Origin: Minisyncoccota bacterium
GTDB taxonomy: Bacteria > Patescibacteriota > Minisyncoccia > Phycocordibacterales > UBA6065
Direction: 5' to 3'
Assembly (NCBI GenBank): GCA_035546035.1
Contig: DASZXC010000003.1
Location: 64,479 to 128,478 of the forward strand
Length of the DNA stretch: 64,000 nucleotides
Each line of letters starts with the position of its first letter. The first letter of the stretch is position 1. Below, one piece after another: positions 3,347-29,669 of the stretch. A program made the position numbers and the translations under genes. The notes under the pieces are model-generated. The model did not search any database. It saw only the letters and a program-made list of their open reading frames with translations, and had not been told where the DNA came from.

Positions 3347-5191
<1,845 letters not shown>

Positions 5192-24247: not shown

Positions 24248-25579
24248 ATGACAAAAATACAAACATTAGAGCCATTAGGGACTGCGGCCAAAGTAGCAAG
24301 CCCCATAAGGGTGAAATACTGCCTTTATGCAAGAAAGTCGTCAGAGTCAGAGGAAAGACAGGTTTTGAGCATCGACAGCCAGATCAAGGAAATGCTCCAA
24401 CTGGCTGAAAGAGAGGGGCTTGAGATCGTGAACATGAAGCGTGAATCGCACTCGGCTAAGGAGACTGGGCAACGACCAGTCTTCAACGAAATCGTGGATG
24501 AGATCAAGCAAGGCAAGTTCAATGGGATTTTGACGTGGGCACCTGACCGTATCTCAAGAAACGCAGGCGACCTCGGAAAGATCGTGGACTTGATGGATGC
24601 GGGAAAGCTCCATGAGATACGCACTTTCGGGCAGAGCTTCCGTAACAATCCGAACGAGAAGTTTCTCCTGATGATTCTCGGGTCACAAGCGAAGCTCGAA
24701 AACGATAATCGAGGCATCAATGTGAAGCGAGGGTTGCGAACGCGAGTGGAGATGGGATTGTGGCCAGGAATGGCACCGCTCGGATATTTGAATCAAAAGT
24801 TGATGGACAAGAAATGTCGGATAGTAATTGATCCCGAACGCGCACCGATCGTAAAGCAGATGTTCGAGAAAGTGGCATTTGATCTCTGGTCTGGTCGCAA
24901 GGTATACAACTGGCTCCGATTCGAGCTTAATTTCCACACCAGAGGAAATAGACCACTAACACTCTCTGGTGTGTACCGAATGCTTCAAATGCCGATTTAT
25001 TACGGACCCTTTGAGTATCCGAAGAATAGCGGCAACTGGTATCAAGGAACGCATGAGCCATTGATCACCGAAGAATTATTCAAGAAAGTGCAGGAACAAC
25101 TGAAGCGAGACAAAATCGTGCGCGAGAACAGAGAGTTTGCCTTCACCAAACTCTTCACTTGCGGCATGTGCGGATCGGGCATCACGGCGCAGGAAAAGTA
25201 CAAGGAACTCAAGGACGGCACGAATGCGAAATACGTCTACTACTCCTGCTCGAAAGCGAGAGACAGGAACTGCAAGAACAAATACATTCGTGAGGAAGAA
25301 TTGATTGAGGAATTGTTTAAGATCATCGACAAGCTGAACATGAATGAACTCGGAATGCGGATGAAGCTCGAAGAAGAAATAAAGCGATTCAATCGATTGC
25401 AGAGACTTGCAACTAAGGGCAAACCAAAGATGCAGATCGATGAGGACGATATTGCCACGCGCGAGTATGCGAAATACGTCCTGCGCGAGGGTACGCCGTT
25501 AGAGAAGCGAGGGCTGATGGGGCACCTGAGATCGAGGCTTGTGCTAAATGACAAGAAAATTAGCCTGATTGAAGAATAA
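24248..25579 (+). CDS. large serine recombinase (integrase)
   Basis: N-terminal resolvase catalytic domain (YARKSSESEERQ...SIDSQ, RISRN), recombinase domain, C-terminal zinc ribbon (CGMCG...C..C). Confidence 0.8.
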   Translation: MTKIQTLEPLGTAAKVASPIRVKYCLYARKSSESEERQVLSIDSQIKEMLQLAEREGLEIVNMKRESHSAKETGQRPVFNEIVDEIKQGKFNGILTWAPDRISRNAGDLGKIVDLMDAGKLHEIRTFGQSFRNNPNEKFLLMILGSQAKLENDNRGINVKRGLRTRVEMGLWPGMAPLGYLNQKLMDKKCRIVIDPERAPIVKQMFEKVAFDLWSGRKVYNWLRFELNFHTRGNRPLTLSGVYRMLQMPIYYGPFEYPKNSGNWYQGTHEPLITEELFKKVQEQLKRDKIVRENREFAFTKLFTCGMCGSGITAQEKYKELKDGTNAKYVYYSCSKARDRNCKNKYIREEELIEELFKIIDKLNMNELGMRMKLEEEIKRFNRLQRLATKGKPKMQIDEDDIATREYAKYVLREGTPLEKRGLMGHLRSRLVLNDKKISLIEE

Positions 25580-25602
25580 AAATATAAAAAGAATGAGCCT
25601 CC

Positions 25603-25632
25603 GCAAAAAATTTCGCGGAGGCTCAAGTATTC
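25603..25632. terminator. bidirectional hairpin terminator between recombinase and DGR target gene
   Basis: gagcctccgcg / cgcggaggctc 11-bp stem with A/T-rich loop. Confidence 0.55.
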
Positions 25633-25662
25633 AAGAGGGACAAGCCCTCAAGGGATCAAGAA

Positions 25663-26469
25663 TCACTTCCTGGCAGCCGACAACCCGAGGTTGTCGTGGC
25701 GGTGGTCATCCCAGTAGTAGTTGACGAAGAGCCCGCCGGAATCGAAGAGGCCGACGTAGACACGGCTACCGCCCGAGCCGAGACTGGAAGTCCGAACGTA
25801 AACGCCTTCGAAGAGTCGGACACCACGGACCTCGAAATAGGTCGTGATGAACCAACACATCTCGGCGGCGTTCGGCACCTTCTCGAGCGCGGAGAGAAGC
25901 TTGTTCTGCTCGTTCCACGTCTTGCTGGTCGAGCTCGAAACAGGCGTCTTCTTGATCAGGAGCCAGCCGAAGGACGTCTTGTCCTCGCGGGCGAACTTCT
26001 GGTCGGCATACCACCCACCCGTCTTCAAGTGGAAGTGGGCAGGCTGAATCTCCCGAACGTTGAGCGTGGACATCGCAGTGGGCGGCGCAGGCATGACGGC
26101 GTAGCCGTTTTCCTTGCACCACGTGAGCACGTCCTCCGACGGCAGACTTTCGGCCAGTGCCGTGATCTGCTCGGCGGTGTAAACGATTGCTCTGCGAGCT
26201 TTCATGACTTCTTCCGGCGTGATGAAATCCGCGCCGAGGATGGATTGCGCCAAACCGTAGTCGGGCGCTTTTGCCGAGAAGCGACGGATTCCTTCAGCGA
26301 GATACTCGGCGAAGCCGGGATGCTCGTTCAGGATCTGTGCGCTTTCGTCCTTGAGTCCCGCCTTGTTGTATTGGGCGCGGAACGTTTCGGTAGCTCTCTG
26401 TCCTTTCGGACTGTCTGCGGTTACCAGTGCAGACGTGTTCAATGATTTTTTCATCGACATCATCTCCAT
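25663..26469 (-). CDS. DGR target (variable) protein with C-terminal C-type-lectin-like variable region
   Basis: C-terminus RVYVGLFDSGGLFVNYYWDDHRHDNLGLSAARK corresponds codon-for-codon to the TR-encoded DGNRVNVGNFDSDGLNVNNYWDDNRNDNIGLSAARQ. Differences fall only at TR adenines. Confidence 0.8.
   Translation of the reverse strand: MEMMSMKKSLNTSALVTADSPKGQRATETFRAQYNKAGLKDESAQILNEHPGFAEYLAEGIRRFSAKAPDYGLAQSILGADFITPEEVMKARRAIVYTAEQITALAESLPSEDVLTWCKENGYAVMPAPPTAMSTLNVREIQPAHFHLKTGGWYADQKFAREDKTSFGWLLIKKTPVSSSTSKTWNEQNKLLSALEKVPNAAEMCWFITTYFEVRGVRLFEGVYVRTSSLGSGGSRVYVGLFDSGGLFVNYYWDDHRHDNLGLSAARK
25669..25783 (-). repeat. DGR variable repeat (VR)
   Basis: 115-nt match to the TR with 13 mismatches, all at TR adenines. 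GC-rich IMH-like 3' end gtcggctgccagg. Confidence 0.85.
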
Positions 26470-26910
26470 TTTGCTGATTTACCGAGAACGCTCGGAACGA
26501 CTTGCCTCTGATTGAGACGAGTTTTCTAAGCCCTGAATTAAGGCTCAAAAAGCTCGTCTCAACAGTGATTCTCTATCAAAGAACTACCTAGCTAGTATAG
26601 CAAAGAAATGGCTATTTGTCAATGGTTTTGGCGATCTGTCAATCTCTGCGCTATACTATCAGCATCTTGCTAATGTAGCTTGGATTACGGTTCAAGCTCG
26701 CGAGATATCTCACCTTGAGATATCGCCAGAGTACCAGTGGTTTACGGATCACGGTAGAGCGCGATTAAGGATAGAGAGAACTTCTTGTTCGCTTCTAGAG
26801 GAGATACTTTGAAAGAAGTTGCTCCCGAATAAAATTCAGAGATGGGAGGATATAGACCTGCAAAGGTAGTAAACCTCGATTCTCGGTGACACAGATGGGA
26901 GCGGGCAATA

Positions 26911-27025
26911 TCTCGACTCGGACGGTAACCGTGTCAACGTCGGCAACTTCGATTCCGACGGGCTCAACGTCAACAACTACTGGGATGACAACCGCAACGA
27001 CAACATCGGGTTGTCGGCTGCCAGG
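26911..27025 (+). repeat. DGR template repeat (TR), AAC-codon rich
   Basis: 28 adenines. 13 of them are substituted in the VR and none of the 87 non-A positions differ. Boundaries set where non-A mismatches begin. Confidence 0.85.
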
Positions 27026-27075
27026 CAGTCATAGCTCTATCCAAGGAAACTTCCGCCAAAAAGCGGAAGTTTCTG

Positions 27076-27426
27076 TTAACGATCCTTCGTTGACTTTATC
27101 CACCCTCCGAGCATTCTCCCTATTTCGTCGAGATTGGCTTCGATGATGATATATTTCTTAGCATCAATCGCTTTGACGTCTTTCATCAGGCGAATGCAGA
27201 CTCGCAGGAAATTAAGTTTAACGCTCGTCTTCTCCAAAGTCGGTAACTTCTCGGACTTGGACTGCTGACTTGCGAAAATAATACCTTCCAGTACATCAAT
27301 AAGAAGGCTTTCGCACTTTTGCCAGAGCGTATAGCGGTCTTGCTTGGGTACAGTAAGACGAAGATTATAGAAATCTTTGTAGAGGTCATAACTTTTCTTG
27401 AAAATCGGTATGTCTAAGTCATTCAT
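27076..27426 (-). CDS. avd: DGR accessory variability determinant (Avd, four-helix-bundle protein)
   Basis: 116 aa. C-terminal IIIEANLDEIGRMLGGWIKSTKDR resembles the bAvd tail (LIAEVGRILGSWIARVNRK). Helix-bundle profile. Confidence 0.75.
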   Translation of the reverse strand: MNDLDIPIFKKSYDLYKDFYNLRLTVPKQDRYTLWQKCESLLIDVLEGIIFASQQSKSEKLPTLEKTSVKLNFLRVCIRLMKDVKAIDAKKYIIIEANLDEIGRMLGGWIKSTKDR

Positions 27427-27428
27427 AT

Positions 27429-28523
27429 ATGAAAATTTATAAGGATTTATATTGGTCGATAATTTCTCCCCAATCTCTATTCAGAGCTTGGGAAGTATTT
27501 AAGTCCGACAAAAGGAATAAACCTGACGTTTCCGAGTTTGAACTCCACATCGAGCAGAATATTTTTGATCTGTACCGCGATCTGAAGAATGAGACGTATC
27601 GACACGGGCCATATAAAGGATTCTGGATACACGATCCGAAGATCAGGCGCATACATAAGGCGGTTGTCCGAGATCGGGTGCTCCATCACGCGACCTTTTC
27701 GGTGCTGAACAAAATATTTGAGCCGACTTTTATCAATGACTCGTATTCGTGCCGTATCGGCAAAGGCACTCACAAAGGCGTGGAGAAAGTTGCTGATATG
27801 CTTCGTACAGCGAGCAAGAATAATACCCGCCAATGCTATGCACTCAAATGCGATGTGAGGAAATTCTTTGACTCTGTTGACCACCAAGTGTTGAAAGACA
27901 TCCTTGGTAGGAAAATCAAGGATCAAAAGACTATTTCTCTTCTGAAAGAGGTTATTGAGAGCTACGAGAAAAGCGGCACTTGCGAGAGAGAGAGAGAGAG
28001 AGAGAGTAAAACGCTGCCGCTTTTTACTACAAATACCAACAAAGGGGTGCCCATCGGCAACCTGACTTCGCAGATTTTCGCCAATATTTACATGAATGAG
28101 TTTGACCAGTTCGTTAAGCATGGGCTTCGGGTGAAAAATTACGCGCGTTACACCGACGATTTTATGATTATATCAGAGGACAAAGAATATCTCGAAAATT
28201 TACTGCCAAAATTGCAAGACTTTTTGAGAGAAAAACTGAAACTCGAACTGCATCCGAACAAGATATCTGTTCGTAAATTTCACGAAGGCATAGACTTCCT
28301 CGGGTATGTCATATTCCCGCATTATAAGCTCCTTAGAGCGAAAACCAAAAAGAGGGTTCTGAGAAATGTACGCAAGAAGATGGCTTGCTACCAAAAAGGA
28401 TTAATTCCTGAAAATCACTTACATCAAAGCATGCAGTCATATCTTGGCGTTTTGTCTCACGCGAATACCTACGAGCTGACGGAGAATTTGAAGAATCAGT
28501 ATTGGTTTTGGATGAAAGAGTAA
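27429..28523 (+). CDS. DGR reverse transcriptase
   Basis: RDRVLHHA and SYSCRIGKGTH N-terminal motifs, DGR-specific IGNLTSQ (in place of QGxxxSP), YTDD catalytic motif (RYTDDFMII). Confidence 0.9.
   Translation: MKIYKDLYWSIISPQSLFRAWEVFKSDKRNKPDVSEFELHIEQNIFDLYRDLKNETYRHGPYKGFWIHDPKIRRIHKAVVRDRVLHHATFSVLNKIFEPTFINDSYSCRIGKGTHKGVEKVADMLRTASKNNTRQCYALKCDVRKFFDSVDHQVLKDILGRKIKDQKTISLLKEVIESYEKSGTCERERERESKTLPLFTTNTNKGVPIGNLTSQIFANIYMNEFDQFVKHGLRVKNYARYTDDFMIISEDKEYLENLLPKLQDFLREKLKLELHPNKISVRKFHEGIDFLGYVIFPHYKLLRAKTKKRVLRNVRKKMACYQKGLIPENHLHQSMQSYLGVLSHANTYELTENLKNQYWFWMKE
27984..28006 (+). repeat. (GA)11 dinucleotide microsatellite inside the RT coding sequence (encodes ERERERES)
   Basis: gagagagagagagagagagagag read directly. 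In frame with the RT. Confidence 0.9.
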
Positions 28524-29407: not shown

Positions 29408-29495
29408 GCGGAGAGGGGGAGATTCGAACTCCCGATGAGGTTTCCCCCATACCGCATTTCGAGTGCGGCGCATTCGACCACTCTGCCACCTCTCC
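29408..29495 (-). tRNA. tRNA-Ser (anticodon CGA), long variable arm
   Basis: Reverse complement GGAGAGGTGGCAGAGTGGTCGAATGCGCCGCACTCGAAATGCGG...GGGAGTTCGAATCTCCCCCTCTCCG. Confidence 0.75.
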
Positions 29496-29570
29496 GTGGT
29501 CTCCGAAGCCTCGATATCCTAGCATTTTTTGCCAAAATAGCAAAAAAAAGCTATATTTGAAGCCTACCGC

Positions 29571-29642
29571 GGCCCTATCGTCTAATGGTTAGGACAGGAG
29601 CTTTTCAAGCTCTAAATCGGGGTTCGATTCCCCGTAGGGTCA
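29571..29642 (+). tRNA. tRNA-Glu (anticodon TTC)
   Basis: GGCCCTATCGTCTAATGGTTAGGACAGGAGCTTTTCAAGCTCT...GGTTCGATTCCCCGTAGGGTCA. Confidence 0.7.
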
Positions 29643-29669
29643 CAACGTTCCGCAGGTTATAATAGATGC

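Follow-up and report, generated by a model that had tools for sequence, protein, structure and literature searches.

A conserved, covarying leader upstream of the template repeat in a diversity-generating retroelement of Patescibacteria

The retroelement and its relatives

The window considered here, a stretch of 64,000 nucleotides from contig DASZXC010000003.1 (positions 64,479 to 128,478 of the forward strand) of the Minisyncoccota bacterium assembly GCA_035546035.1, houses a diversity-generating retroelement (DGR) in which a target gene with its variable repeat (VR), a template repeat (TR), the accessory gene avd, and the gene of a reverse transcriptase (RT) lie side by side (Table 1). Judged from its sequence, the locus is an intact DGR of the sort that is standard for the Patescibacteria (candidate phyla radiation, CPR), with the core order TR-(avd)-RT, and neither further VRs nor a second DGR were found in the 64-kb window, which holds just one of each. 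The gene layout is real, but it is normal and already catalogued for the DGRs of Patescibacteria; what the comparison adds is a conserved and covarying non-coding leader of 247 nt that lies directly 5' of the TR, together with its likely role.

The TR and the VR form an inverted repeat of 122 nt with a complementarity of 88%. Within the mutagenised part (26911-27025) the two copies show fixed differences at 13 positions, all of which are plus-strand adenines in the TR, with no mismatch at any other base, an outcome whose chance is ~0.24^13, or ~1e-8, by our own arithmetic (32 A in 132 TR bases, 24%). In 56 related loci the differences between TR and VR likewise fall on adenines of the TR. When read in the frame of the target gene, the changes fall on codon positions 1-2 of AAC, GAC, and ATC, which is the usual DGR pattern, and they exchange N for S/Y/L/F/H, D for G, and I for L. 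The VR terminates with the stop codon (25663-25665) of the target open reading frame (ORF) on the minus strand, and the variable C-terminus of the target protein ends in ...NYYWDDHRHDNLGLSAARK. The end of the repeat is like an initiation of mutagenic homing (IMH) site, in that a GC-rich 18-mer, GGGTTGTCGGCTGCCAGG, is identical in TR and VR before the bases diverge, and the GC-rich hairpin at 25594-25625 is the predicted terminator of the target gene and corresponds to the inverted repeat downstream of the IMH in phage BPP-1. The same hairpin also follows the VR in relatives whose target is co-oriented with the TR.

The translation of the RT carries the DGR hallmarks IGNLTSQ and YTDD, in agreement with the motifs of the DGR clade (I/LGxxxSQ and YxDD), and its best solved relative in a search of the PDB was the Bordetella phage bRT (8ub7_A, E 5e-44), with group II intron and retron RTs scoring far behind it. 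For Avd, which is recognised by its Pfam family, the PDB sequence search gave no usable match, and the target protein had neither a Pfam match nor a usable match in the PDB sequence search. The original prediction, made from the letters of this stretch, had placed the target gene, the VR, and avd on the minus strand, in the order target, TR, avd, RT along the plus strand, with the TR inverted relative to the VR and its adenine-bearing strand on the side of the RT; the ORFs, the Pfam matches, the inverted repeat 25662-25783/26911-27032, and the 13/13 mismatches at plus-strand adenines all bear this out.

When the RT was used to search one genome per species, 80 loci were obtained, all from metagenome-assembled genomes (MAGs) of Patescibacteria/CPR. 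In 79 of these avd is antisense to the RT and adjoins its start, the remaining locus being cut by a contig end. A TR/VR pair was mapped in 56 loci; without exception the TR shares the strand of the RT and lies shortly before the stop of avd, and the VR is co-oriented with it in 45 loci and inverted in 11. Among the 11 are the window and the relatives closest to it, L001 and L070. Wu et al. 2018 (PMC5758913) described this arrangement as architecture B3, TR-(avd)-RT, to which 90% of their CPR DGRs belonged, and they also recorded DGR components on different strands, which need separate transcription units; Roux et al. 2021 (PMC8144416) showed that CPR DGRs form a clade of their own (DGR clade 2). 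The window has the makeup of B3, namely TR, avd, and RT with avd reversed and no other accessory gene. It shares with the CPR B3 elements the order and the strands (TR on the RT strand, with the reversed avd in between), a host among the Patescibacteria, and a single target with a C-terminal VR, and it shows no difference in layout from them, the inverted target being a recurrent sub-variant. The comparison with survey catalogues that had been proposed at the outset has therefore found its match in B3, with an inverted target in 11/56 relatives, and the earlier description of the layout as ‘non-canonical’ is valid relative to phage BPP-1 but not within the CPR.

Table 1. Features of the DGR locus, in window coordinates (MFE, minimum free energy; UTR, untranslated region).
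Feature	Position	Strand	Basis
GC-rich hairpin then T run, ~30 nt downstream of VR	25594-25625	-	terminator scan and inverted repeat
Variable repeat (VR), with IMH-like 3' end	25662-25783	-	TR/VR alignment
Target gene, 268 aa as listed	25663-26469	-	ORF list; homologues beside the DGR in ~30 relatives, on either strand
Hairpin of ~20 bp in target 5' UTR	26512-26562	-	inverted repeat and relatives (flanks 26470-26593)
Promoter-like site, target gene: TTGACA, 17 nt, TG-TATACT (11/12 matches)	26594-26622	-	promoter scan
Promoter-like site, TR RNA: TTGGCG, 18 nt, TATACT	26628-26657	+	promoter scan
Structured non-coding leader of the TR RNA, 247 nt	26664-26910	+	alignment, nhmmer, RNAalifold
Leader helices	26668-26702, 26725-26762, 26800-26825, 26839-26884	+	RNAalifold and alignment
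Leader strand GGATAGAG(AGA)ACT, candidate primer strand	26769-26782	+	MFE, duplex tables, shuffles, position relative to end of TR/VR homology
5' strand of 11-bp long-range helix, candidate counterpart of the BPP-1 ‘cPRT stop’ duplex	26786-26796	+	RNAalifold, pair counts
A-rich single strand CGAATAAAATTCAG	26826-26839	+	near-invariant columns; present in distant clade too
3' strand of 11-bp long-range helix, ends 3 nt before TR	26897-26907	+	RNAalifold, pair counts
Template repeat (TR)	26911-27032	+	inverted repeat and TR/VR alignment; adenine-bearing strand is the RT strand
CTCTATCC, complement of leader 26769-26776, immediately 3' of TR/VR homology	27035-27042	+	fold, duplex tables
12-bp stem-loop between TR and avd stop codon	27045-27074	.	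inverted repeat and relatives
avd (bAvd family), convergent with TR RNA, divergent from RT	27076-27426	-	Pfam PF22296, E 5.9e-17
Back-to-back start codons CAT-at-ATG (catatATG)	27424-27431	.	sequence; avd CAT 27424-27426, RT ATG 27429-27431, 2 bp apart
DGR reverse transcriptase, 364 aa	27429-28523	+	Pfam RVT_1, E 3e-24

A covarying leader and its long-range helices

Profile searches with nhmmer recovered the leader in 57 loci, always on the strand of the TR and abutting it. It is present in every locus with an RT identity of at least about 49% and enough upstream sequence, and the clade with an RT identity of 47-48% carries a diverged version with shared motifs. Joint folding of 37 leader sequences with RNAalifold gave 48 pairs, of which 37 have compensatory changes, and an independent count found double changes in 35 of 45 leader pairs. 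The cells of the leader alignment are paired in 96.6% of cases, as against 74.7% when the partners were shuffled and 37-50% when they were slid, and the covariation score is 0.716, as against 0.28 (shuffled) and 0.11-0.17 (slid). In the window itself, the RNA 26664-27078 folds with an MFE z-score of -4.8, and the fold of this single sequence reproduces the helices, including the two long-range ones. Rfam gave no match to the leader at gathering score and noise only at E values up to 10; a weak match to Thr_leader (E 0.25) was set aside as reflecting only the terminator-like hairpin that follows the TR. A literature search, as far as the papers were accessible, found no description of an upstream leader element of this kind.

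Two long-range helices place parts of the leader at the two edges of the TR. At the 3' edge, leader positions 26769-26776 (GGATAGAG) pair with 27035-27042 (CTCTATCC), a sequence that is absent from the VR side, and ACT (26780-26782) pairs with AGT (27027-27029); a near-invariant ACTTCTTG comes directly after this leader strand. The strands of this first helix vary by subclade, with complementarity kept in six subclades, as illustrated by the pairs GGATGGAG/CTCCATCC, AGAGATGGAAA/TTTCCATCT, GAAGGAA/TTCCTTC, GTTG-GGAGA/TCTCC-CAAC, and AAGGAG/CTCCTT. The duplex energy is better than that of shuffled sequences in 37/37 cases (mean z-score -2.2), and in a clade-by-clade matrix of duplex energies the cognate combination is clearly the best in five of the six rows and ties in the sixth. 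The template strand of the helix begins -4 to +7 nt from the end of the TR/VR homology in 34 of the 37 loci.

At the 5' edge, the second helix has an upstream strand that begins three bases past the leader strand of the first helix. Nine of its 11 pairs are compensatory and it is 98.5% paired. In 32/37 loci the distance from this helix to the start of the TR/VR homology is 1-6 nt (3 nt in the window), and the helix encloses the short hairpin 26800-26825, the A-rich strand 26826-26839, and the longer hairpin 26839-26884.

Probable transcription units around the template repeat

A promoter-like site precedes the leader, with TATACT at 26652-26657 as the -10 box in the window. A -10 box with at least 4/6 matches occurs in 36 of the 37 loci, in most of them 11-15 nt upstream of a conserved GCTAATG, and takes the form TATAAT, TATACT, or TACAAT, often with a TG upstream. 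At the other end, the 43 nt that separate the TR from avd in the window hold one stem-loop, which precedes the avd stop codon on the plus strand. At this position 45 loci have a stem-loop, whose median length is 12 bp and whose arms comprise 40 distinct sequences, which shows that it is kept by covariation. A T-rich tail lies 3' of it on the plus strand in 37/44 loci and on the minus strand in 27/44, and the most distant clade has a textbook GC stem and T run at this position, overlapping the avd stop. The stem-loop looks like a terminator of the TR RNA, and often a bidirectional one; by analogy it may double as an Avd-binding hairpin, given that Handa et al. reported an Avd-binding stem-loop immediately 3' of the TR for many DGRs.

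With a promoter-like site and a terminator-like end of its own, the unit of leader, TR, and hairpin looks autonomous, and autonomy of this kind would leave the target free in its orientation and make co-transcription of TR and RT unnecessary. In the co-oriented relatives, the terminator of the target precedes the leader-TR unit. In one locus, L060, the leader-TR-terminator unit has been inverted by a natural rearrangement (4068-4440, minus strand): it follows avd on the same strand, the RT is divergent, and the target lies beyond the RT. The unit keeps the leader motifs, the primer complementarity, and the terminator, and the TR and the RT therefore cannot share a transcript at that locus.

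The original prediction had put forward a different arrangement as one alternative, namely one long plus-strand transcript that runs through the TR, the antisense of avd, and the RT, with the spacer and self-priming functions residing within antisense avd. There is precedent for such a transcript in BPP-1, where the spacer lies downstream of the TR and where the TR and the RT gene brt are co-transcribed (Handa et al. preprint, 10.1101/2023.10.23.563531). Moreover, the RT of the window has no detectable promoter or ribosome-binding site, and the antisense-avd RNA folds better than shuffled sequences, with a z-score of -3.3. That z-score, however, takes in the terminal stem-loop, and the frequency of the MFE structure is about 0. 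In avd codons 100-116, which are nearest to the TR, synonymous variation is not reduced (observed/expected 1.03-1.19, in a profile of pairwise synonymous differences across 58 avd genes), and the antisense of avd is without extra constraint. The covarying, T-tailed stem-loop separates the TR from avd, the RNA with strong covariation is found upstream and not downstream of the TR, the edges of the TR/VR homology coincide with leader helices, and in L060 the TR is on the strand opposite the RT. We consider the long transcript, and with it the placement of priming within antisense avd, very improbable. Leaky read-through of the TR RNA may nonetheless feed some translation of the RT.

The start codons of avd and RT stand back to back, as had been pointed out for the window, and this junction is conserved throughout the family. 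The gap between the two starts ranges from -2 nt (an overlapping CATG) to +16 nt in 55 of the 57 relatives with clear starts, with the +2 of the window among the commonest values, and neither the avd ORF nor the RT ORF has an alternative start codon nearby. Synonymous variation is reduced over the first ~8-10 codons of both genes (observed/expected 0.63-0.9). The earlier suggestion that the expression signals of each gene overlap the other gene is a reasonable one in the light of these gaps and of the constrained 5' codons. RT codons 2-8 (AAA ATT TAT AAG GAT TTA TAT) provide, on the minus strand, TATAAA(T) boxes that precede the avd ATG by 6-15 nt, and avd is probably transcribed from these -10-like boxes as a leaderless or near-leaderless mRNA. 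For the RT, neither the promoter scan nor the relatives gave an acceptable plus-strand -10 box before the ATG, and no convincing Shine-Dalgarno sequence was found. An internal TG-TATATT at 27148-27155 (box 27150-27155), within the KKY-I codons of avd, was considered as an RT promoter and, being kept in just ~40% of the relatives, was not adopted.

It could be imagined that avd and RT each have a promoter within the first codons of the other, that the two promoters face each other and overlap fully, and that they give rise to leaderless mRNAs, which would make the transcription of the two genes mutually exclusive at any moment. The narrow gaps, which leave most loci without room for a 5' UTR or a Shine-Dalgarno sequence, the minus-strand boxes in RT codons 2-8, and the reduced synonymous variation at both 5' ends are in keeping with such a scheme. 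Yet the RT has no acceptable -10 box before its ATG, the internal candidate at the KKY codons is retained by a minority of relatives, and gene starts often show reduced synonymous change for reasons of translation. We consider the scheme somewhat less likely than not. Expression of the RT may depend on leaky read-through, a weak promoter, or processing.

Within the RT, an in-frame (GA)11G tract (27984-28006) encodes ERERERES just before GVPIGNLTSQ. A (GA)n tract of 8-39 nt is found at the equivalent site in 14/80 relatives from several subclades, among them L061, L062, L070, L002, L014, L018, L023, L053, L056, and L078. In L061, L062, and L070 (tracts of 13, 29, and 13 nt) the two halves of the RT are intact and lie in different frames, with the tract as the only break between them. 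The pattern resembles a slipped-strand switch that turns the DGR on and off, or else an assembly that collapsed a heterogeneous population; in part of the clade the RT may be switched on and off by slippage at the tract, which hints at on/off control of hypermutation. In L070 (~4996-5010) the A run after the RT start codon is also 1 nt shorter, ATGAAATTT versus ATGAAAATTT in the window, and with this second frameshift the RT of L070 may be decaying.

The target gene may have its true start at the ATG at 26454, behind GGAG. Its promoter-like site, which is kept in L001 and L070, and the -35 box of the TR RNA are divergent and 5 bp apart. The hairpin in its 5' UTR has an outer stem of TTGAGACGAGC/GCTCGTCTCAA, followed by GAGGCAAGTCG and a small hairpin ahead of the ribosome-binding site, and relatives with inverted and with co-oriented targets alike have a corresponding hairpin, with compensatory changes, ahead of the target gene. 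A 14-nt imperfect inverted repeat with a AGTGATTC core flanks the target cassette (25654-25667 and 26564-26577), one arm being at the IMH-like end of the VR and the other beside the 5' UTR hairpin, and matches of 9-11 nt, made up of other sequences, occur at the equivalent position in ~14/48 relatives. As sites of inversion these repeats were rejected: across the family the matches measure 7.7 nt versus 6.8 nt in shuffled sequences, barely above controls, and the promoter and terminator of the target lie outside the repeats, which therefore cannot explain its inverted orientation. Further afield, a gene for a large serine recombinase with Resolvase, Recombinase, and Zn-ribbon domains (24248-25579, plus strand) converges on the target gene, and genes for tRNA-Ser and tRNA-Glu are found at 29408-29643, just past the ORF downstream of the RT. 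The window contains no att-like repeats of the neighbouring tRNA-Ser of at least 13 nt.

Topology of the RNA and a possible role of the leader

In BPP-1 the DGR RNA is composed of the 3' end of avd, the TR, and then a spacer of 140 nt (PMC6182149; 10.1101/2023.10.23.563531). In the cryo-electron microscopy (cryo-EM) structure the spacer begins with the Avd-binding hairpin right after the TR, followed by the primer strand, which pairs with the 3' end of the TR; two bases past the primer strand comes a strand that is paired just 5' of the TR (the ‘cPRT stop’), and further 3' there are a short hairpin and adenosines, a single-stranded ‘thumb ring’, and a long RT-binding hairpin (10.1101/2023.10.23.563531). 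A published survey of DGR RNA elements covered only the 40 nt upstream and the 100 nt downstream of the TR (10.1101/2023.10.23.563531), which would be the wrong place to look in the large B3 group if the leader has the role considered here.

The window has in common with BPP-1 a homologous RT, an Avd of the same family, A-specific mutagenesis at AAC codons, and a stem-loop of ~11-12 bp directly after the TR. Both also have a duplex at the 3' edge of the TR that would join primer and template, a second duplex 2-3 nt further on whose partner lies just 5' of the TR, and then a short hairpin, an A-rich single strand, and a longer hairpin. The two elements differ in that avd is co-oriented with the TR and upstream of it in BPP-1, whereas in the window it is reversed and downstream. 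The RNA elements of BPP-1 all lie 3' of the TR, whereas those of the window lie 5' of it with the exception of the post-TR hairpin, and the leader has three extra hairpins at its 5' end. Downstream of the TR the window offers a terminator-like stem-loop and then unconstrained antisense avd, and not the ~140 nt of structured RNA, with primer, stop, thumb-ring, and RT-binding elements, that define a BPP-1-type RNA. The CPR leader thus resembles a circular permutation of the BPP-1 DGR RNA, in a comparison that concerns topology only and claims no sequence or structural homology.

A similar connectivity is familiar from retrons, in which the msr-msd RNA carries the priming nucleotide 5' of the template in the same RNA, the start of the cDNA is fixed by a duplex between a 5' segment and the bases that directly follow the template, and the RNA is a self-contained unit beside the RT gene. 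On the strength of this analogy, the retron side of which is drawn from general knowledge, the leader of the window may be called retron-like in its connectivity. DGRs differ from retrons in that they require Avd and in that their product replaces the VR rather than persisting as msDNA, and the RT of the window belongs to the DGR clade, with retron-type RTs scoring E values of about 1e-18 to 1e-19 in the PDB search.

The explanation that we favour is that the TR is made as a non-coding RNA of its own, ~410 nt in length, which would be transcribed from the promoter-like site at 26628-26657, start near 26664, and run through the leader and the TR to the stem-loop at 27045-27074, where both this RNA and the convergent avd mRNA would terminate. 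The leader would supply what the downstream spacer supplies in BPP-1. At the 3' edge of the TR, its strand 26769-26782 would pair with 27027-27042 and offer a leader nucleotide as the primer, whereby cDNA synthesis would start at the 3' boundary of the TR; its strand 26786-26796 would pair with 26897-26907, closing the domain of two hairpins and an A-rich strand and marking the stop of the cDNA. The order of the strands would be that of a circularly permuted BPP-1 RNA, with the priming nucleotide, as in retrons, 5' of the template. If all RNA functions are located upstream of the TR, avd can sit reversed right after it and the target can face either way, as a separate transcription unit that happens to be inverted in the window. 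We assign this explanation as a whole, that is, an autonomous TR RNA, a leader that supplies the spacer functions, a reversed avd, and a separate target unit, a probability of roughly 0.6, with the promoter, the start, the terminator, and the ends of the RNA being predicted features. That the leader takes over the likely priming and spacer role is, as a proposition by itself, slightly favoured. The more general proposition, that the DGR RNA of B3 elements is a promoter-to-terminator module with a 5' leader of ~250 nt as its ‘spacer’, a permuted BPP-1 RNA in which the leader both primes and sets the stop, has in our estimation an even chance of being correct.

Several observations weigh against the favoured explanation. 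The relatives share ancestry, and the significance derived from shuffles is thereby inflated. Cognate and non-cognate duplexes of the first helix differ weakly in energy across the 37 sequences (-14.2 versus -12.0 kcal/mol), a difference of only ~2 kcal/mol that reflects the promiscuous pairing of purine-rich with pyrimidine-rich strands; the clade-by-clade matrix and the positional comparisons were more informative. The statistics behind the priming duplex are modest, and the data point to no particular priming nucleotide. The terminator scan did not call the stem-loop 27045-27074 in the window, since its T run lies partly within the stem. Finally, neither a promoter nor a Shine-Dalgarno sequence of its own can be recognised for the RT, whose expression may thus require a degree of read-through from the TR RNA.

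One would also have to consider that the leader is a structured RNA with some other role, such as a platform for binding of Avd or RT, a stability element, or a sensor that gates the levels of TR RNA, and that priming takes place elsewhere, for example at the 3' end of the terminated RNA or on a nicked RNA. The structure of the leader is certain while its function is not, the 5' hairpins at 26668-26762 have no counterpart in BPP-1, and the statistics of the priming duplex are moderate, all of which would fit such a role. It is, however, difficult to reconcile with the finding that both long-range helices lie exactly at the edges of the TR/VR homology in >85% of the loci, and with the 3-nt spacing between the primer strand and the stop strand, which mirrors the 2 nt in the cryo-EM structure of BPP-1. 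We regard another role for the leader as unlikely, if less so than the long transcript through antisense avd.

The layout of the locus alone changes nothing, as it is the one catalogued for the CPR, and the useful question is rather where the spacer and priming functions are to be found when avd is reversed and sits right after the TR. The comparative data give a testable answer, in the form of a covarying 5' leader whose two long-range helices lie within a few bases of either edge of the TR. If this answer is true, the mechanism based on the cryo-EM structure of BPP-1 would extend to the most DGR-rich group of bacteria, the RNA scaffold of DGRs would be one that tolerates permutation, and the segment 26664-27078 would represent the minimal RNA for reconstituting or engineering a CPR DGR. 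It would also explain why avd can be reversed in these elements and why their targets can face either way.

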